Shown piece after piece: positions 5,271 to 13,244 of a stretch of 64,000 nucleotides of DNA; within the stretch, counting starts at the first letter, position 1, and each line of letters starts with the position of its first letter. The position numbers and the translations under genes were made by a program. Under the pieces are notes generated by a model that was not told the DNA's origin, made no database searches, and saw only the letters and a program-made list of their open reading frames with translations. Origin of the DNA: Patescibacteria group bacterium (GTDB lineage Bacteria; Patescibacteriota; Patescibacteriia; 2-01-FULL-39-33); the NCBI GenBank assembly GCA_041671305.1, contig JBAZBX010000001.1:40821-104820 (forward strand), read 5' to 3'.

Positions 5271-6725
5271 TTAAACTTTATTCAGATCCAAATATTCGTC
5301 AATTCTAATCTGTTTGACAAAATCAGGCATGTGACTGACCAGAATCATCGCGCCCTCAAAATCATTAATTGCCTTAGCAATAACCGGAATATGCCGGAAA
5401 TTAATATGATTAGTCGGCTCATCCAGCACCAATAATCCCGGCCGCATCAGAACCAATCTGGCAAAGGACAAGAGTCCCTTTTGCCCCTCAGACAAACTCC
5501 CCACAGTATGATCCATTAACTCTCCGGTAATAAGTAATCCTGCCGCCGTAGATCTCATTTCCTGCTCCGTAATATCATCATCCAGGATAGCGCTCTTGAG
5601 AGAATTAAAAACAGTCTCATCAAAATTGAGCTGAGAGAAATCCTGACTATAATATCCAATTCTGACGCCTTCAGTAATAGTAGCGCCTTCAGCCTTGCCA
5701 GCCACAAGAAAACGCAAAAACGTGCTTTTGCCAATACCGTTGGGACCGGTTACTAGCAGATGCGTCTTCTTGCGAAGCACCACGTCCACATCTTTGAGCA
5801 ATGGCAAATGATTATAAAAAGACAAAACTGATTTGATCGTCACAACCTCGGTCTTAATATTTTGTTCAGGAATGGTAAAATTTCTAATGGTTTTGTCTTC
5901 TCGTCTGACATCCACAATATTGTCTTCTTGCTCTTCAATTTCATCTCTGAGTTTCTTGGCTAATTTTCTCATCTTACCACCTTTATTGGCAAAAAAATTA
6001 ACTTTTTCTTTGCGATCTCTGATTAATTTTTCCGCGCGGGCATTTTCCATCTGTTCTCTCTCAATCCTTTTGGAAATTTCTTCCACCACTGAGTAATAAT
6101 CGCCCACATAAGCCTCAATCTTGTGAGTAAAGACGTCTAAGTATATGACTCCTTCCGTAAAACAATTAAGAAAATCAGCGTCATGGGAAATTACTATAAC
6201 CGTCTTCTCGTACATCACCAGAAAAGTAATCAAGTGATCAATGCCGTCAGAATCAAGATTATTGGTCGGCTCATCAAGCAACAAAATATCCGGATCCTGA
6301 ATCAAAGCATAAGCCAAAAGTAACCTGGCCTGCTGTCCACCGCTCATATCCCCCACTTTCCTCTCCAAAGGCATATTCAAATTAACCGCTTCCAAAACCT
6401 TGCTAATCCTGCTTTTGAGATTGCCCGGAACCATAGTAAACGCCTTGGCAAAATATTTTTCCACGGTCAACTCCAAATCATCTCTATCCATAGTCTGTCT
6501 AGCCGTACCAATGGTGGCGTCGTTGGTGATAGAAATTCTCCCCTTTTGCGGTTTAATTTTTCCCTGGATGAGATTAAAAATCGTGCTTTTACCGGCACCA
6601 TTTTGGCCCATCAAAGTAATTTTCGCGCCCTTGCGCACACTGAAACTAGCCTCTTCCAAAAGAGGTTTTTTGTATGCGTATTCAAATGAAACTTCATCAA
6701 AACGAAGTATTACTTCTTCGGCCAT
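5271..6725 (-). CDS. ABC-F family ATPase (tandem ABC domains, no TMD; translation-associated)
   Basis: Two Walker A motifs (GQNGAGKST, GPNGIGKST) and two ABC signatures (LSGGQQARL, LSEGQKGLL). Confidence 0.85.
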   Translation of the reverse strand: MAEEVILRFDEVSFEYAYKKPLLEEASFSVRKGAKITLMGQNGAGKSTIFNLIQGKIKPQKGRISITNDATIGTARQTMDRDDLELTVEKYFAKAFTMVPGNLKSRISKVLEAVNLNMPLERKVGDMSGGQQARLLLAYALIQDPDILLLDEPTNNLDSDGIDHLITFLVMYEKTVIVISHDADFLNCFTEGVIYLDVFTHKIEAYVGDYYSVVEEISKRIEREQMENARAEKLIRDRKEKVNFFANKGGKMRKLAKKLRDEIEEQEDNIVDVRREDKTIRNFTIPEQNIKTEVVTIKSVLSFYNHLPLLKDVDVVLRKKTHLLVTGPNGIGKSTFLRFLVAGKAEGATITEGVRIGYYSQDFSQLNFDETVFNSLKSAILDDDITEQEMRSTAAGLLITGELMDHTVGSLSEGQKGLLSFARLVLMRPGLLVLDEPTNHINFRHIPVIAKAINDFEGAMILVSHMPDFVKQIRIDEYLDLNKV

Positions 6726-6879
6726 AATTTATATTATAAAAACCCAAGGATCTTCTTAGGTTTGTCTCTGCATTACTGCAGTATAATAGCATATTTTATA
6801 TAATCTTGCAACCACAAATCCCTGAAGCCCTAGAATACGCTTAAAATTTAATTTCAAAAATAGCGTAAAAAAAAGAGGG

Positions 6880-7320
6880 CCCGACGCGATGATCTTGGAG
6901 GGTGATCGCGTCGGGCGGGAGTTGGGACTCCGAGGGGGTTAGGTACACGACAAATTGACAATAGCGAGGGGGTGCTGGAAGAGGGTGTTCCTCTCGCCAT
7001 TACACAACTCGTCGTGCAAAAAAACTTTTTTGGAGGAAGGTGGACCGAAAAACAGCAATCACTCCCTTTTCATGCTAGTCGTCACATCACGCGCATTGTA
7101 CACAAAAAATGACTAGCATGTCACCGAATCGGTGATGTGGCGGGTGTTGTACACCACAGGATGATTCAACTAAATTCCGTCCACCTTCCTCACTACATAT
7201 ATGGCCGCCCTTATCATCAATCAACCGTTCCAACCGTTCGTGTTTCACAGACATAAGGGTCGAGCCAAGCCTCTTGGGATGAGGCATTTGGGGCTAAAGA
7301 AAGAACGACTCTAAAACAAT
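6880..7320. ncRNA. GC-rich, highly structured, apparently non-coding segment (candidate structured RNA of unknown class)
   Basis: About 55% GC in an AT-rich genome with almost no ORF. Hairpin 6883-6918. Long-range 13-bp helix GGAGGAAGGTGGAC (7031-7044) / GTCCACCTTCCTC (7178-7190). Crossing helices 7071-7079/7110-7118 and 7082-7089/7131-7138 form a pseudoknot. Confidence 0.3.
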
Positions 7321-7774
7321 TACATTATATTAAAATTAGATATAAAAGTCAAGATTTATACAACAAAATCTTTTTATTTCATTTTAAAAGCTAATTTAGA
7401 AGGTTAATTAGGCCAGCTATATCAAATTAACGATTAGTGTGCTAAGATTAAACTCTAATTAAGAACCTACGGGGAAATGGTCGTGACCACGTATTAAGTC
7501 CAGAAATGGATACTACTAGATACCAAATACCATGACAGAAGATACAACAGAAGAAACAACAGAGGAAACTCCTGAAGTTGCTACAGAAGAAAAAACAACA
7601 GAGGAAGCCGCTTCATAGACAATGAAAACGAAGCAAAAAAAGAAAAAATCCCCACTAAACTAGTGAGGCTTTTTTCTTTTGGGTAGAGAACTGGCTGAGT
7701 GAAACAAAATTTTCAAATTTTTGAGTGAGCCAAATTTGGGCTGGACTTCGGCGCTAAGCGCCGGAAATTCCGAA

Positions 7775-7892
7775 TGGCTGGGTGTTTATGAACAAATCCG
7801 AACCGAATTTAAACAAAAATCATGATCGGGCGGGCGGAATCCCCCCCAAACCCCTCCTTCCGCCCGACCTAAACATCTGGACGGCTGAGGCG
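7775..7892. repeat. 118-bp inverted repeat, left copy (IR-L)
   Basis: 100% identical to the reverse complement of 9326..9443. Contains an internal TCGGGCGG...CCGCCCGA hairpin. Confidence 0.9.
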
Positions 7893-7904
7893 AAATAGCA
7901 ATTT

Positions 7905-8951
7905 TCAATTTTTCTTTGGCGGCGAATTTTTTTCTCCTTCTTTAACTATTTCCCTTACTTCATTGTAACTTATCTGCCTTGGCCATAATAGATTGCCGTG
8001 AGCATCATAAATTGGCAGAAGAAAATCAACCCGGTCTCCATAAATCTTTCTCATTAATGTAGCTATTTCATTTGCTTTATTTTGTTTGCTTTCATCATCA
8101 TCAACTTCTTTATACCTATGTATTTTTCTTAAAACTTCTTGTGGGACATATGGTTGTTTTTTATATAAATTATCCATTTCCTCCTCTGTCTGTTCTGCCA
8201 TGGCTCTTATTACAATACCCTTAAACCGGTCTGGAGCAATTCGAAAAGACAAAGCGTAGCCCTCAGAATAGTCAGGAATCCTTCTGTCTCCTTCTTCAAA
8301 ATATTCTTCTCTTTCTGATCCTGGTCTAGCATGGGCTCCGAAAGTATTACTTTTATACTGTAATTTTTCTCTTTTGCCAAGGTCATAATCCAATGCATAA
8401 TTGGCAATTTCAGTATTTTCCTTAAAATCTGCTGTATCAAAAATTATTCCCAAGGAGGTTTGGCTTGTTCCAATGGGTCTAAACCAATGGGCGTCTTCGA
8501 TTTTTCTTAAATCCCGACCAACAATATTGAAAAAAACAACGGCCCCCATTTTTTTTCTAACAGCGCTAACCCAATCTTGTTCAGGACTGTTAGGATTCAA
8601 TTTTCCTAATAAACCCTTTCGAAGTATACCGCCTAATTTAATGGTGGAATTATCATCTTCAAGTATTCTAACAGAATGAAATCCTGTCCCCGGTTTATTT
8701 ATATCTTGTATTTTTTCCATTATTCTCTCAACCACTTCAGGTAGTAGTTCGGGAGGAATAGGGATGTCGGAATTATCAATATTTTGATCTGCATTTTCCA
8801 CGTCCAAAATATCGCTTTCGACTTGATAATCATCAGGAGAAAAATCCTCACCCTTCTCAGGATATTTTTCTTTCAATTTTTCTTGTAGCCTTTGGGCTTC
8901 TTTTAGAGCGTCATCGTTGTTTAATCGACCGCTTTCAAATCTTTTTTCCAT
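7905..8951 (-). CDS. Hypothetical 348-aa protein (cargo of the IR-flanked cassette)
   Basis: Long ORF 5 nt downstream of the XRE HTH gene on the same strand. No recognizable domain. Confidence 0.55.
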   Translation of the reverse strand: MEKRFESGRLNNDDALKEAQRLQEKLKEKYPEKGEDFSPDDYQVESDILDVENADQNIDNSDIPIPPELLPEVVERIMEKIQDINKPGTGFHSVRILEDDNSTIKLGGILRKGLLGKLNPNSPEQDWVSAVRKKMGAVVFFNIVGRDLRKIEDAHWFRPIGTSQTSLGIIFDTADFKENTEIANYALDYDLGKREKLQYKSNTFGAHARPGSEREEYFEEGDRRIPDYSEGYALSFRIAPDRFKGIVIRAMAEQTEEEMDNLYKKQPYVPQEVLRKIHRYKEVDDDESKQNKANEIATLMRKIYGDRVDFLLPIYDAHGNLLWPRQISYNEVREIVKEGEKNSPPKKN

Positions 8952-8955
8952 AAAT

Positions 8956-9162
8956 TTATTTCAATAACTCCCACGCCTCCACTCCTAAAGCGTGAGCTAG
9001 TCTATTTAAATTTTCTAATGTGGGATTAACTTGACCACTCTCGACTCGACATATATAGGCGCGATCTATTTTACTAGAACGAAAAACATCGCCTTGCGTA
9101 AGACTTTTTTCCTCTCTTATTCTCTTGAAATTATACGCTAATTTTTTACTTAATTTATGCAT
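8956..9162 (-). CDS. XRE/Cro-C1-type helix-turn-helix transcriptional regulator
   Basis: LTQGDVFRSSKIDRAYICRVESGQVNPTLENLNRLAHALGV, a classic HTH_3 pattern; 68 aa. Confidence 0.75.
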   Translation of the reverse strand: MHKLSKKLAYNFKRIREEKSLTQGDVFRSSKIDRAYICRVESGQVNPTLENLNRLAHALGVEAWELLK

Positions 9163-9245
9163 AGTTATCCACAGTCATTTTAACAATTATTGTATATCTT
9201 AACAATATTGTAGTATACTACAATATGTAAGTGAAATTTTGCATT

Positions 9246-9272
9246 AAGAAAAAGAAAAAGTTTGATTCTGGC
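9246..9272. repeat. 27-bp inverted repeat IR2-a (partner 9533..9559)
   Basis: AAGAAAAAGAAAAAGTTTGATTCTGGC is the exact reverse complement of 9533-9559. Confidence 0.85.
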
Positions 9273-9302
9273 CAAAATAAAGTTCGAGCCGATTTTTTTA
9301 AT
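9273..9302. repeat. 30-bp inverted duplicate (B') of the recombinase 3' coding segment 10901..10930
   Basis: CAAAATAAAGTTCGAGCCGATTTTTTTAAT equals the reverse complement of 10901-10930. Confidence 0.85.
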
Positions 9303-9325
9303 CTGGTTCTTTGGCGGTTTTATTC

Positions 9326-9443
9326 CGCCTCAGCCGTCCAGATGTTTAGGTCGGGCGGAAGGAGGGGTTTGGGGGGGATTCCGCCCGCCCGATCATGATT
9401 TTTGTTTAAATTCGGTTCGGATTTGTTCATAAACACCCAGCCA
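9326..9443. repeat. 118-bp inverted repeat, right copy (IR-R)
   Basis: Reverse complement is identical to 7775..7892. The outer end CACCCAGCCA resembles the tRNA-Gln 3' end CCCGCAGCCA. Confidence 0.9.
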
Positions 9444-9512
9444 GTTTCGTTTTTCATTTTTTAAAACCGAATCCCAACCGTTTTTTGGCTTAAATTCAAA
9501 TTTTTTGCCTTG
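9441..9512. repeat. 72-bp inverted duplicate (A') of the tRNA-Gln 3' end plus downstream flank (10931..11002)
   Basis: The reverse complement of 10931-10999 is identical to 9444-9512, and the CCA is also shared. Confidence 0.85.
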
Positions 9513-9532
9513 GTTCCGATTACAATCGGAAC
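9513..9532. promoter_or_regulatory. 20-bp perfect dyad site GTTCCGATT-AC-AATCGGAAC (candidate recombinase crossover site or HTH operator)
   Basis: Perfect 9-bp arms around a non-palindromic AC dinucleotide, 40 bp upstream of the serine recombinase start. Confidence 0.35.
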
Positions 9533-9559
9533 GCCAGAATCAAACTTTTTCTTTTTCTT
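9533..9559. repeat. 27-bp inverted repeat IR2-b
   Basis: Reverse complement of 9246-9272. Confidence 0.85.
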
Positions 9560-9574
9560 TAATTCAATACAAAT

Positions 9575-11062
9575 ATGAAATACTTTCTTTATGCCCGCAA
9601 GTCGACAGACGAAGAGGATCGTCAAGTTCTTTCAATTGAAGCCCAGCTCGCGGAGTTGAAGGAGTTAGCCGCCAAAGAAAAATTGGAAATTGCGGACTCG
9701 CTCTGCGAGTCCAAAACCGCCAAAGAACCAGGCCGAAAAATTTTCGGCGGAATGCTCGCTCGGATTGAAAAAGGTGAGGCCGACGGAATTTTAGCGTGGC
9801 ACCCAGATAGATTGGCCAGAAATAGCGTTGATGGTGGAAAAATTATCTACATGGTGGATATCGGCCAGATCAAAACGCTAAAATTCCCGACTTTTTGGTT
9901 TGAGAATACTCCGCAAGGGAAATTCATGCTCAATATCGCTTTCGGCCAAAGCAAATACTATGTTGATAATTTAAGCGAAAATGTTAAACGTGGTTTCAGG
10001 CAAAAGTTAAGGCGCGGCGAATATCCCAATAAAGCGCCCATCGGCTATCTTAACGACCGAACAGCTAAAACCGTGCTCATTGATCCTCTGCGCGCCAAGC
10101 TCGTGATAAAGATGTTTAAGATGTACAACACGGGAGAATTTTCGCTTAAATTTCTTAAAGATAAGTTTTGCGATATTGGCCTGACCAGCAAGCGCGGCAA
10201 AATCCTGACTGTCGGCATGATTTCTAACATATTGAATAATCCCTTTTATTGCGGAGTATTCAAGTTTAATGGCGAAATCTACCAAGGCAAGTACGAGCCA
10301 ATTATTTCCAAGAAGCTTTTTGATGAAGTTCAGGCGGTAATGAAAAACCGAGGACGGCCGCTCGGGCAAGACAAACACGATTATGCTTTTACTGGACTTA
10401 TGAAATGCAAGTGCGGCGCCTGCATTACCGCCGAACGGCAAAAAGGCCATATCTATTATCGCTGTACGAAAAAGCTTGGAGCCTGCGACGAAAAGTATAT
10501 CCGCGAAGAAAAACTGCTGGAGCAATTCCATGGCCTTTTTCAAAAAGTTTCTTTGCCAGATGACTGGATTGACAAGATGCTCGCTAAACTCGATGAGGAA
10601 CAAAAAAGCGACATGAAGTCATCGGTAGGTCTGATTGACGAGGTAAAAACGCAAATAGGAGCCATAGAGAGCAAGCTAGATAAGTTGCTCGATGATCGAT
10701 TAGAAGGATTACTCGATAAGGACGACTATTTGCGGAAGAAGGAACAACTCATCAATCAGAAAATTGCTTTTGAGGAGAAAATCCAGTCAATCAGGCAAAC
10801 GGGAAATAATTGGCTCGAACCGATGCGGGAATTCCTTTCCGCCAATAAACAAACCAAAAAAGTCGCCAATAGCGGCGACATTCTGGAAATCCGAGCATTC
10901 ATTAAAAAAATCGGCTCGAACTTTATTTTGCAAGGCAAAAAATTTGAATTTAAGCCAAAAAACGGTTGGGATTCGGTTTTAAAAAATGAAAAACGAAACT
11001 GGCTGCGGGACCTGGAGTCGAACCAAGATAACAGCTTTCAGAGAGCTGCGTCCTACCATTAG
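9575..11062 (+). CDS. Large serine recombinase (resolvase/invertase catalytic domain, recombinase domain and zinc-ribbon)
   Basis: YARKST catalytic-serine motif near the N-terminus; CKCGACITAERQKGHIYYRC zinc ribbon; 495 aa. The last ~20 codons are antisense to tRNA-Gln. Confidence 0.9.
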   Translation: MKYFLYARKSTDEEDRQVLSIEAQLAELKELAAKEKLEIADSLCESKTAKEPGRKIFGGMLARIEKGEADGILAWHPDRLARNSVDGGKIIYMVDIGQIKTLKFPTFWFENTPQGKFMLNIAFGQSKYYVDNLSENVKRGFRQKLRRGEYPNKAPIGYLNDRTAKTVLIDPLRAKLVIKMFKMYNTGEFSLKFLKDKFCDIGLTSKRGKILTVGMISNILNNPFYCGVFKFNGEIYQGKYEPIISKKLFDEVQAVMKNRGRPLGQDKHDYAFTGLMKCKCGACITAERQKGHIYYRCTKKLGACDEKYIREEKLLEQFHGLFQKVSLPDDWIDKMLAKLDEEQKSDMKSSVGLIDEVKTQIGAIESKLDKLLDDRLEGLLDKDDYLRKKEQLINQKIAFEEKIQSIRQTGNNWLEPMREFLSANKQTKKVANSGDILEIRAFIKKIGSNFILQGKKFEFKPKNGWDSVLKNEKRNWLRDLESNQDNSFQRAASYH

Positions 11063-11073
11063 ACGATCCCGCA
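11000..11073 (-). tRNA. tRNA-Gln (anticodon CUG)
   Basis: Manual fold gives U1-A72 acceptor pair, U8, D-stem GTCT/GGAC, anticodon loop CTCTGAA with U33 and A37, T-loop TTCGACT, discriminator G and an encoded CCA. Confidence 0.8.
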
Positions 11074-11098
11074 TTATATTAATTCATTAATCTTCTTT

Positions 11099-11353
11099 TT
11101 AAATATGCTCTTCCAAAACCAGTCTTAAGCTGTTTTTCCCTTTCAATTCAATAGCGTTTTGTTTACTTAAACACGCCTCATAATATACCAACTCGAGTGG
11201 TTGCCTTTCCTTTGTTGAATTTACTTGTCCACTATTATGCAAATAAATCCTTTTTCTTAAATCTTGAGTAAATCCAATATAATATCTTTCATCCGCCAAA
11301 CTCTTTAACACATAAGTGTAATAAAATTGCATATATCTATTAAACCTATCCAT
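11099..11353 (-). CDS. GIY-YIG nuclease-family protein (UPF0213-like)
   Basis: YYTYVLKS...YYIGFTQDLRKRIYLHNSG...LVYYE. The longest ORF extends to 11404 through a GC-rich palindromic stretch, so the start is uncertain. Confidence 0.65.
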   Translation of the reverse strand: MDRFNRYMQFYYTYVLKSLADERYYIGFTQDLRKRIYLHNSGQVNSTKERQPLELVYYEACLSKQNAIELKGKNSLRLVLEEHI

Positions 11354-11477
11354 TGGACGACCCGCCTGCAACGCTTTGCGTAGCAATGCGGGCAGGTCCC
11401 GCAAAATAATTTAATCCAAAAAAGCACTATAGTGCTTTCTATAAATTAACAAAAAATAGCAAAAAAATCAAGTGAGA

Positions 11478-13244
11478 TTAGAACATCCCTATCACATCAG
11501 CCACAACATCTGTAGGCACCGATGGTTTGGTTACTACAACATCAGCTTCAGCTTTGGATTTAAACATGGCAGGATCCGCACCAAATACTGGGCGATCCAC
11601 TTTCTCTTTCAACTCCGGAATAACCAAATCCTCCTGAACCACTCCTCTAATGCTTACTGGCGCCGATATGGCCTCAGATATCACATCCTCAACCACCTTG
11701 CGATTACTCGCGCATTCCAGCCTATCTTTGTAAAACTGGCTTTTGACGGCAATTTCCAAAACATTATCCTTGGCGCTAAGCGGCTGACTAATCCTAAGTA
11801 AAGATGACAAAGTAAAATTTTTCTCAAACAACTTTTCAGAAATCTGCACCCAATTTTCTTTTACTTTATTTAAATCTATCGGGGTTTTTGTTTTTTGTTT
11901 GTTTTCGTCATCTGACATCTTAATTTCTGAAACCTCTTCCATAATCTCATCTTCTTTCTTTAATTCTTCCGCCACTTCCTCAACCTTAGTCTTTTCAATC
12001 TTCTCAGCTTCTTGAATCCGATTTAAATTTTGAATTTTCTCCTTAGCTTTATCAAAAACCTCTTTTGGAGGTGTAGGCTCAGCACACTTGGCATCTTCTC
12101 TCATAACTACTCCCCTGCCAGTACTAGCCGGATTAATATCTCTATTCTCACACACTACATTTTTATCAAATTGAATAACCGCCATCTCCAAAGGAAATTG
12201 CACGATAGTGGCGCTTTTTAATTCTTGAGCTTTTTCCATGAACAATTCAATAATGGAAATTAATTTTTCATAAGTAAATACTTCTGCTAATTTTTCAGCA
12301 GACTTCTGACTATCTTCATCAAGCTCAATACCAAAGTCATTCAAATTATAATTAACCTTGAGAAGCAAAATCTTTCTGAGAAATTCTATAAGTCCATCTG
12401 CAAAAACCTGTAAATCCACACCGTCTTCCACTAATTTATTTATCAATTCAATAGCGGCAGTTGGATTTTTCTCACCCAAAAAACTCAAAAAGTCAGTGAT
12501 GCTTTTGAAATCCGTACGAGGCAGAACCAATTCCGCCGAATCCATATCTATATCATCGCCGAGAGTAAGAATTTTTCCCAAAAGACTTTCGGCATCACGA
12601 ACGCAACCCTCACTGTGTGTCACAATATTTTTGAGTACATCTTCTGTTACTTTTTTACCTTCTGATTTTACTACCAATTTGAGCAAATCAAGCATTTCTG
12701 CCATGGAAACTTTTTTGAAATCAAATCTTTGGCAACGAGAAATAATAGTCTGTGGCAGCTTGTGCGTTTCTGTAGTGCAGAGAATGAATATCACGTGAGC
12801 CGGCGGCTCTTCCAATGTCTTGAGCAAGGCATTAAAAGCCGCCGTAGAAAGCATGTGTACCTCATCAATAATAAATACCTTGTATTTGCTTTTGGTGGGT
12901 GTAAATCTGGCATTCTCAATAATATTTTCTCTGACATTATCCACACCGGTATGAGATGCCGCATCAATCTCAATCGTATCCACAGAACTGCTATTTATCA
13001 CATCCAAGCACGAAGAACACTCATTGCATGGCTCGCTCTCCCCTTCTTTGCGATTTTCGCAGTTTATCGCCTTGGCAAAAAGCCTAGCCGAAGTCGTCTT
13101 GCCCAAGCCTCTTGGCCCGCAAAAAAGATAAGCATGGCCGATTTCGCCAAGCTCTATTTCATTTTGCAAAGTGATTTTGATGTGATTTTGGCCAATCAAA
13201 TCTTTGAAAGTCTGAGGCCTGTATTTACGATATAATGCGGACAT
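11478..13244 (-). CDS. dnaX: DNA polymerase III subunit gamma/tau
   Basis: GPRGLGKTT Walker A, clamp-loader box motifs and a CxxC zinc module; 588 aa. Confidence 0.9.
   Translation of the reverse strand: MSALYRKYRPQTFKDLIGQNHIKITLQNEIELGEIGHAYLFCGPRGLGKTTSARLFAKAINCENRKEGESEPCNECSSCLDVINSSSVDTIEIDAASHTGVDNVRENIIENARFTPTKSKYKVFIIDEVHMLSTAAFNALLKTLEEPPAHVIFILCTTETHKLPQTIISRCQRFDFKKVSMAEMLDLLKLVVKSEGKKVTEDVLKNIVTHSEGCVRDAESLLGKILTLGDDIDMDSAELVLPRTDFKSITDFLSFLGEKNPTAAIELINKLVEDGVDLQVFADGLIEFLRKILLLKVNYNLNDFGIELDEDSQKSAEKLAEVFTYEKLISIIELFMEKAQELKSATIVQFPLEMAVIQFDKNVVCENRDINPASTGRGVVMREDAKCAEPTPPKEVFDKAKEKIQNLNRIQEAEKIEKTKVEEVAEELKKEDEIMEEVSEIKMSDDENKQKTKTPIDLNKVKENWVQISEKLFEKNFTLSSLLRISQPLSAKDNVLEIAVKSQFYKDRLECASNRKVVEDVISEAISAPVSIRGVVQEDLVIPELKEKVDRPVFGADPAMFKSKAEADVVVTKPSVPTDVVADVIGMF

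Follow-up and report, generated by a model that had tools for sequence, protein, structure and literature searches.

A small serine recombinase element in a tRNA-Gln gene of a Patescibacteria bacterium, with a predicted ADP-ribosyltransferase-fold protein as its putative swappable cargo

Serine recombinase elements of the staphylococcal cassette chromosome (SCC) type and similar systems (CcrAB/CcrC, TnpX/TndX, XisF, and phiC31-like integrases) integrate site specifically at the 3′ end of a conserved gene and carry variable cargo. Tpt1/KptA is an NAD+-dependent RNA 2′-phosphotransferase that has the ADP-ribosyltransferase (ART) fold without the catalytic Glu and acts on a nucleic-acid phosphate. 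DarT (PF14487/DUF4433), the single-stranded DNA (ssDNA) ADP-ribosyltransferase toxin of DarTG, requires R51, Y71, M78, H119, and E160 for catalysis, and its partner is the DarG macrodomain (PMC9967889). Here we examine a locus that resembles each of these systems in part. It lies in a stretch of 64,000 nucleotides (nt) from a Patescibacteria group bacterium (GCA_041671305.1, contig JBAZBX010000001.1, positions 40,821 to 104,820), hereafter the window, and comprises a gene for a 348-amino-acid (aa) protein, a gene for a 68-aa helix-turn-helix (HTH) regulator, and a large serine recombinase gene. As a whole, the locus is best explained as a small recombinase element inserted in tRNA-Gln, with a swappable ART-fold cargo gene and an HTH gene that belongs to the element backbone, an account to which we assign a probability of roughly 0.55.

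The recombinase element and its variable cargo slot

The region holds an integrative element, site specific and ∼3.2 kb long, that has a CTG core, and the same element is found in different flanks. This follows from the shared TGGCTG ends, the four outer flanks, and the junctions in tRNA-Gln and in the related contig L057. TGGCTG, which corresponds to the tRNA 3′ CAGCCA, occurs at 7775-7780 and 11000-11005, with the shared crossover core CTG at 7778-7780, and the CAGCCA of the tRNA overlaps the element end. A single metagenome scan with the tip of the left-end repeat recovered eight contigs, and the relatives were 87-92% identical to the window element across the recombinase, Y, X, and mosaic segments (Table 1). 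The tip of X′ (...CACCCAG) joins four different outer flanks, those of the window, L057 (the same as in L013), L061, and L062. At the right junction, the window reads AACTGG-CTG-CGGGACCTGGAGTCGAACC, and L057, which is inserted at a non-tRNA site, reads AACTGG-CTG-ACTGACTCGGTCTAGAACC; GGxxTxGAACC is common to both junctions at the same offset (B′ arm). The target of L059 and L063 is tRNA-Gln. A scan of viral contigs for the repeat tip returned nothing, and in Rfam the tRNA was the sole match within 6700-11500 at E<=1.

The recombinase matched the Pfam Resolvase, Recombinase, and Zn-ribbon domains (3.6e-19, 2.4e-13, and 3.6e-07, respectively) and the integrase family phrog_95 (6.5e-78), and it matched the CcrB, XisF, and CcrA models below their cut-offs. 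Its open reading frame (ORF) beyond ...N-W-L (AAC TGG CTG, ending at 11005) is encoded by the flank, in this case by the antisense of the tRNA, and the tails after NWL differ among the window (11005-11062), L057 (8104-8119), and L059 (6000-6168). The C-terminal tail of the recombinase therefore varies with the integration site, and excision would change it again.

The backbone of the element is made up of its two ends (X′ on the left and Y′ on the right), the internal inverted copy of those ends in joined form, the recombinase gene, and the 68-aa HTH gene. The cargo of the element differs from one relative to the next. Sequence is conserved at the left end up to ∼7931 and again on the right side from ∼8943-8969, at the 3′ end of the HTH gene. 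In the window, this slot holds the 348-aa gene behind its own 68-aa HTH gene. In L057 (3697-6002), three membrane or lipoprotein genes lie behind the same HTH (62 of 68 residues identical), and in L062 (301-1611) the same HTH, with a gene 81% identical at the DNA level, precedes a 436-aa protein that has no Pfam match. The slot of L059 (435-4173) carries a serine-hydrolase membrane protein, a PD-(D/E)xK-like gene, and an N6_N4 DNA methyltransferase (DPPY) with a different small HTH, and that of L060 (1278-3357) carries Hypoth_Ymh and DUF3800 genes with no HTH. Because the same HTH (∼90% identical) stands in front of three unrelated cargos (window, L057, and L062), the comparison points to a backbone regulator placed before interchangeable cargo and not to a cognate antitoxin. 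The final codons of the cargo ORF and its stop come from 7898-7931, within the conserved left end.

A first-pass annotation of the window, made from the sequence alone, had called the HTH and 348-aa genes the cargo of an invertible or mobile cassette. The recombinase, the tRNA-Gln target, and the relatives with variable cargo support their placement in a mobile element, and the 123-nt inverted repeats (7775-7897 and 9321-9443, 99% identical) beside the recombinase are real. Both ORFs were confirmed as well, although they lie 4 nt apart (plus-strand AAAT) and not 5 nt as first given. The chance of an open frame of 348 codons is ∼5e-10 at the 38.7% GC content of the sequence. For the 68-aa ORF, openness by chance has a P value of ∼0.015, and it is considered real because its product matches Pfam HTH_3 (PF01381; 8.1e-11, 42 bits against a cut-off of 23) and is conserved in related contigs. 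The best PADLOC match of the HTH protein was the restriction-modification (R-M) model Control_protein (2.5e-11), with weak matches to the HipB/Y4mF antitoxins and CapH. A perfect 22-bp palindrome, also found in L058, overlaps the HTH promoters. It would suit an HTH dimer, and we infer autoregulation and co-transcription with the cargo: in the proposed mechanism, the dimer would bind the palindrome over its own promoters and so would autoregulate the HTH-cargo transcript.

The element also contains repeats of its own parts, all of them inverted. The 267-nt block at 9246-9512 is built wholly from inverted copies of recombinase-gene pieces and of the left end; their partners lie at 9533-9559, 9713-9731, 10901-11005, and 7775-7923. 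Repeat pairs are 98.7-100% identical within each genome (L057, L059, and L063), and the mosaic pairs are 100% identical within L057 and L059, whereas orthologs differ by 4-15% and Y/Y′ copies from different genomes are 85-96% identical. For instance, Y of L059 differs from the others yet exactly matches the 3′ end of its own recombinase gene. All relatives share the 30 nt of segment d at 100% identity. Since pairs within a genome are nearly identical and orthologs are divergent, the pattern indicates ongoing homogenization by recombination or gene conversion and points to concerted evolution. The block might provide inversion sites, take part in cassette exchange, or pair as RNA with the mRNA of the recombinase. 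No simple history of inversions or deletions accounted for the fragments of the mosaic at 9246-9321.

Two inverted attP-like sites flank the cargo arc. This geometry is the one used in recombinase-mediated cassette exchange, and natural exchange of cassettes, a speculative reading, would explain the interchangeable cargo. In one contig (L013, 1379-1486; ENA ERZ27249449 k141_668518), a cassette 100% identical to that of the window over 1378 nt is joined to an L057-type flank. Further, the left flank of the element holds a second AACTGGCTG motif at 7690-7698, and the X and Y arms of L059 match the window at 7896-7728 (91%) and 7718-7931 (85%); the stretch just outside the element is probably what remains of an earlier L059-type element at the same tRNA-Gln site.

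Table 1. Features of the recombinase element and its left flank, with positions in the window
Feature	Positions	Strand	Description
Decayed remnant of earlier occupant (probable)	7681-7777	+	Like the 3′ end of an L059-type recombinase gene
Integrative element	7778-11002		∼3.2 kb; CTG core; tRNA-Gln 3′ end; large serine recombinase
X′, left end (P′ arm of attP-like site)	7775-7897	+	123-nt inverted repeat with 9321-9443, 99%
Left-end extension	7898-7931	+	Kept in L057, L061, and L062 to ∼7924-7931 despite different cargo
Segment b	7898-7923 / 9693-9668		Inverted copy of recombinase codons 32-40, within the left-end extension
Cargo slot	∼7932-8955		Between left end and HTH gene; content varies among relatives
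348-aa cargo gene	7905-8951	-	Unannotated CPR/DPANN family; ART-like (DarT/Tpt1-like) fold predicted
68-aa XRE/Cro-C1 HTH regulator	8956-9162	-	Pfam HTH_3; element backbone gene (from comparison of relatives)
Putative promoter/operator region	9163-9245	-	Two sigma-70-like promoters and the 22-bp palindrome at 9205-9226
Mosaic of exact inverted recombinase-gene copies	9246-9321	+	Segments c, d, and e
Segment c	9246-9272		Exact inverted copy of upstream region 9533-9559
Segment d	9273-9302		Exact inverted copy of 10901-10930
Segment e	9303-9321		Exact inverted copy of 9713-9731
Internal inverted copy of attP-like junction	9321-9512	+	X (9321-9443), CAGCCA, and Y (9438-9512); Y is an inverted copy of the recombinase 3′ end (Y/Y′ 75 nt, 100%)
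Large serine recombinase, 495-aa ORF	9575-11062	+	Resolvase, Recombinase, and Zn-ribbon domains
Y′, right end (P arm of attachment site)	10931-11005	+	TGGCTG at 11000-11005
tRNA-Gln(CTG), integration target	11000-11073	-	ARAGORN; Rfam, 58 bits

An unnamed protein family and its predicted fold

The 348-aa protein had been described as an acidic orphan with no recognizable motif. The last point was borne out, as no match was found in Pfam, NCBIfam, PHROGs, PADLOC, or the PDB sequences, nor in the PDB with the family profile. The protein is mildly acidic overall (isoelectric point, 5.13; 67 D+E versus 54 K+R), but the strongly acidic portion is confined to residues 1 to 65. It is not an orphan. 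Although it has no paralog in the window and a word-indexed search returned only 10 relatives, an exhaustive profile search returned 781 family representatives, each standing for a cluster at 50% identity; the match reached E<=1e-30 for 337, and most are 260 to 400 aa long.

This family is large, unnamed, and almost confined to candidate phyla radiation (CPR)/Patescibacteria bacteria and to DPANN archaea. Almost all species-representative genome loci belong to CPR/Patescibacteria (Saccharibacteria, Parcubacteria/Paceibacterota, Moran-, Staskawicz-, Doudna-, Kaiser-, Andersen-, and Berkelbacteria), with further members in Nanoarchaeota and Woesearchaeota; the gene for ribosomal protein S6e, an archaeal marker, adjoins one homolog. 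Four members (L036, L045, L048, and L051) come from metagenome-assembled genomes labeled Gammaproteobacteria or Thermodesulfobacteriota, and such members outside CPR/DPANN reflect either rare horizontal transfer or binning contamination. No source gave a name for any member, no paper was found that ties CPR/DPANN to ARTs, and a Pfam scan of ten unusually long members for fused domains found none. The conserved motifs are ELSPEVxExIMxKVQDI, LxxILxxGLLG, VxFNIVGR, IIFDxSxFKE, GFxLxxRVAPRxFxGIV, and LLPIYDxxGNLLWPKQMSYEEV. About 20 positions, polar or aromatic, are nearly invariant among sequences that are only ∼30% identical, and the many near-invariant polar residues suggest an active or binding site.

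Structure prediction, which had been proposed as a check on the protein, gave an ART fold. With 10 sequences, AlphaFold2 (AF2) reached a predicted local distance difference test score (pLDDT) of 61; with 150 sequences, it reached a pLDDT of 87 and a predicted template modeling score (pTM) of 0.82. The predicted fold is closest to DarT and Tpt1, and the model contains a split beta-sheet ART core with DarT-like topology. A Foldseek search against viral structures gave no meaningful matches. We built profiles from DarT and Tpt1 sequences taken from PDB alignments, together with 120 natural DarTs. In permissive mode, hhalign placed the family collinear with DarT over 157 columns in a low-confidence alignment with three aligned blocks: LxxILxxGLLG with DarT NLxSILxxGxL in the helix after beta-1, VxFNIVGR with VPFYFxPR, and GFxL...APR...GIV with EFLV...PW...IxV. 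In this low-confidence register, DarT R75 corresponds to R146, which is conserved, and an E or D stands two residues ahead of G231 in 66% of members. Global-mode hhalign gave nothing usable.

We examined the genomic context of the family at 37 loci, 6 of them metagenomic contexts of close homologs and 31 of them genome loci. None of the six close-homolog contexts has an HTH gene adjoining the family member, and BLASTP clustering of neighbor proteins at the 31 genome loci revealed neither a related HTH nor any neighbor common to more than 3 of the loci. A serine recombinase lies near the family member at 1 of the 31. Neighbors in the six close-homolog contexts include an Exo_endo_phos gene, RhuM fragments, HepT/MNT pairs, and S6e. 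A Pfam census of 58 and 110 neighbors returned scattered housekeeping genes (RecA and MurB three times each, LeuRS, P-type ATPases, PolA, MreB, ClpP, LigA, FtsW, TsaD, and RNase Y), along with two GIY-YIG genes and two IS200 transposases. No macrodomain gene was found among the 110 neighbors of the 31 loci or in the element, and the neighbors included no other candidate antitoxin. Analysis of the homolog neighborhoods for defense-island enrichment had been proposed as a check; they showed none, and the PADLOC matches among neighbors were cross-matches from RecA, PolA, and others. In the window, a small GIY-YIG nuclease gene (11099-11404, minus strand) lies just past tRNA-Gln, and a related one stands beside the family member in L017 (582-806); with two cases only, this may be coincidence.

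Weighing the explanations

The most likely reading of the predicted fold and the comparative evidence is that the 348-aa protein is a divergent enzyme of the ART fold that stands alone and is carried as swappable cargo under the HTH repressor of the element. As proposed, it would act as a nucleotide- or NAD-utilizing transferase on nucleic acid or another phosphorylated target through a rewired active site, for which N142, R146, D172, E178, R237, Y315, D316, and N320, plus E72, K80, and D83, are candidate residues, and it would do so alone, without a dedicated antitoxin. Our confidence is not the same for all parts of this account. We hold its genomic and structural parts to be highly probable, while ART-like enzymatic activity is a tentative suggestion, with the odds somewhat against it. 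A more ambitious joint reading has only a small chance of being right in full: an unrecognized ART clade nearly restricted to CPR/DPANN, in which Asn/Arg/Arg/Tyr and an N-terminal acidic helix replace H-Y-E, would perform a new NAD+-dependent modification of nucleic acid and serve as a single-gene, HTH-repressed conflict effector, with the paired inverted attP-like copies mediating cassette exchange.

Several results weigh against the preferred account. Profile comparisons were not significant: with the profile of 150 family sequences set against one of 36 DarT sequences, hhalign gave a probability of 0.9-1.7%, the comparison with Tpt1 gave 1.6%, and no DarT match appeared in Pfam or PADLOC at E<=1. 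In the low-confidence register, the catalytic Y71 and E160 of DarT fall on N142 (Asn in 140 of 150 sequences) and G231 (Gly in 149 of 150), and conserved counterparts of R51 and H119 are not recognizable in the family. The beta-1 position is S, H, or T across the family (His in the window protein). Since the residues at ART catalytic positions are not of catalytic types, the protein could be a non-catalytic ART-like scaffold, or it could use a different substrate. As for mobility, the single metagenome scan, in which the internal attP-like junctions would be confounding, turned up no circle from excision, no empty site, and no inverted isoform. The L013 junction reflects either a real exchange of the cassette or element or an artifact of assembly that fused two sequences across the 33 nt at the tip where both X variants agree. 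Given that the catalytic residues and the DarG partner are lacking and the profile comparisons are not significant, the protein appears to be neither a DarT nor a Tpt1 but a member of a divergent family with a predicted ART fold, whose chemistry, if any, would run through other residues.

The rival closest to these objections is that the fold was kept and NAD chemistry lost, so that the protein would be a CPR/DPANN-specific binding or structural factor that became cargo by chance. The S/H/T, Asn, and Gly at the canonical H-Y-E positions, the absence of a significant profile match to any ART family, and the housekeeping-like genomic contexts all fit such a protein. Yet some 20 near-invariant polar or aromatic residues at ∼30% identity fit an active site better than a scaffold. 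Tpt1 also uses a non-canonical residue set, a further point against an inactive protein. The residue set of DarT itself is likewise non-canonical (PMC9967889). We consider an inactive protein rather unlikely on balance, with an appreciable chance nonetheless. The first-pass annotation had instead favored a two-gene toxin-antitoxin (TA) or abortive infection (Abi) module, here a DarT-like toxin with the HTH as antitoxin and/or repressor, serving phage defense or element addiction. Part of that idea has support, in that the nearest structural relatives are DarT toxins, the HTH gene directly precedes the cargo gene in one operon, comes with a palindrome that looks autoregulatory, and has weak antitoxin and CapH matches, sister elements carry R-M and Ymh/DUF3800 cargo (the L059 cargo being of conflict type), and two homologs lie near HepT/MNT pairs. 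What fails is the pairing. The HTH is a backbone gene found with unrelated cargos; a related HTH, a macrodomain, or a conserved neighbor occurs in 0 of 37 family contexts; defense islands are not enriched; other residues stand where DarT has its catalytic Glu and Tyr; and hundreds of stand-alone copies in tiny genomes disfavor a toxin that nothing neutralizes. A dedicated HTH-effector module, and with it the undescribed two-gene system first suggested, is therefore not supported, and we give the TA/Abi explanation a small chance, though a toxicity or defense role for the protein with this predicted fold is possible.

Two other readings are very improbable. The PADLOC Control_protein match, the palindromic operator upstream, and the sister element L059, in which a methyltransferase and a PD-(D/E)xK-like gene come with a small HTH of their own, would all suit a restriction endonuclease under C-protein control, with the 348-aa protein as a fast-evolving type II enzyme. 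There is, however, no methyltransferase in or beside the element and no restriction endonuclease match in PADLOC or Pfam, and family members do not sit beside methyltransferases; this reading was rejected as largely refuted by the missing methyltransferase and restriction endonuclease match. We also rejected the idea that the protein is a transposase or recombination accessory factor of a 1.67-kb cassette that has the 123-nt inverted repeats as its borders. Long terminal inverted repeats do flank the cassette, and the same cassette occurs beside another flank, but these repeats also flank unrelated cargos, family members elsewhere lack them and are single copy among housekeeping genes, the predicted structure has no DDE/RNase H-like or recombinase fold, and a complete serine recombinase is adjacent.

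Neighboring features, significance, and comparison with known systems

To the left of the element, the ORF-poor and GC-richer segment at 6840-7300 folds far better than shuffled controls (z = -5.9 on the plus strand and -7.0 on the minus strand), and its minus strand ends in a strong hairpin followed by U8 (∼6876-6918); Rfam gave no match at E<=1. One possibility is a structured RNA of ∼430 nt, and another is that the ABC-F gene (5271-6725, minus strand) has a long leader here. At 7533-7620 (plus strand), a highly acidic ORF of 29 aa (MTEDTTEETTEETPEVATEEKTTEEAAS) with short tandem repeats is followed by a bidirectional terminator-like hairpin (7638-7680). Weak Thr-leader-like Rfam matches (E = 0.065 and 0.9) at 7607-7712, over the end of the ORF and the terminator region, are probably spurious.

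The biology of CPR/DPANN organisms depends on interactions with host cells, and most of their proteins lack annotation. The predicted fold would give the family, with its ∼780 clusters, a structural annotation and a biochemical hypothesis that can be tested, and, if catalytically active, the family would represent a large lineage-restricted ART branch with non-canonical catalytic residues. The element offers a compact natural site-specific integrase in Patescibacteria with a defined tRNA target and a cargo slot that appears swappable. Its duplicated and homogenized att-like repeats are unusual and may bear on cassette exchange by serine integrases. It is also important to note that a small HTH gene upstream of an unknown protein is not, here, evidence for a TA or defense pair.

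Compared with SCC-type and similar elements, the window element shares the recombinase domains, site-specific integration at the 3′ end of a conserved gene, and variable cargo. It differs in being very small (3.2 kb), in having a single cargo slot, and in containing an internal inverted copy of its joined ends together with exact inverted copies of short pieces of the recombinase gene, an arrangement for which we know of no described counterpart. The HTH gene resembles those of R-M controller (C) proteins and Cro/CI repressors, as it encodes a 68-aa HTH_3 protein immediately upstream of its presumed target with a palindromic operator over its own promoter. Unlike R-M C proteins, it accompanies no restriction enzyme or methyltransferase and is tied to the element backbone.

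The likeness of the 348-aa protein to Tpt1 includes, by eye, the Tpt1 hairpin FYxxNGVWL, which is similar to the family motif IYDxxGNLLWP, whereas the N-terminal RNA lobe and the HGT and VHL motifs of Tpt1 are absent from the family, as is any Pfam match. Relative to DarT, the protein is ∼140 residues longer, and the family has a conserved N-terminal helix (ELSPEVxExIMxKVQDI), an insert, and a C-terminal PIYDxxGNLLWP motif; it lacks the DarG macrodomain partner, and the catalytic Tyr and Glu are replaced. What the family and DarT have in common is the predicted fold and the collinear motif blocks, among them the helix LxxILxxGxL after beta-1 and F-x-x-x-[PG]-R after beta-2, and DarT, too, rides on mobile or defense loci.

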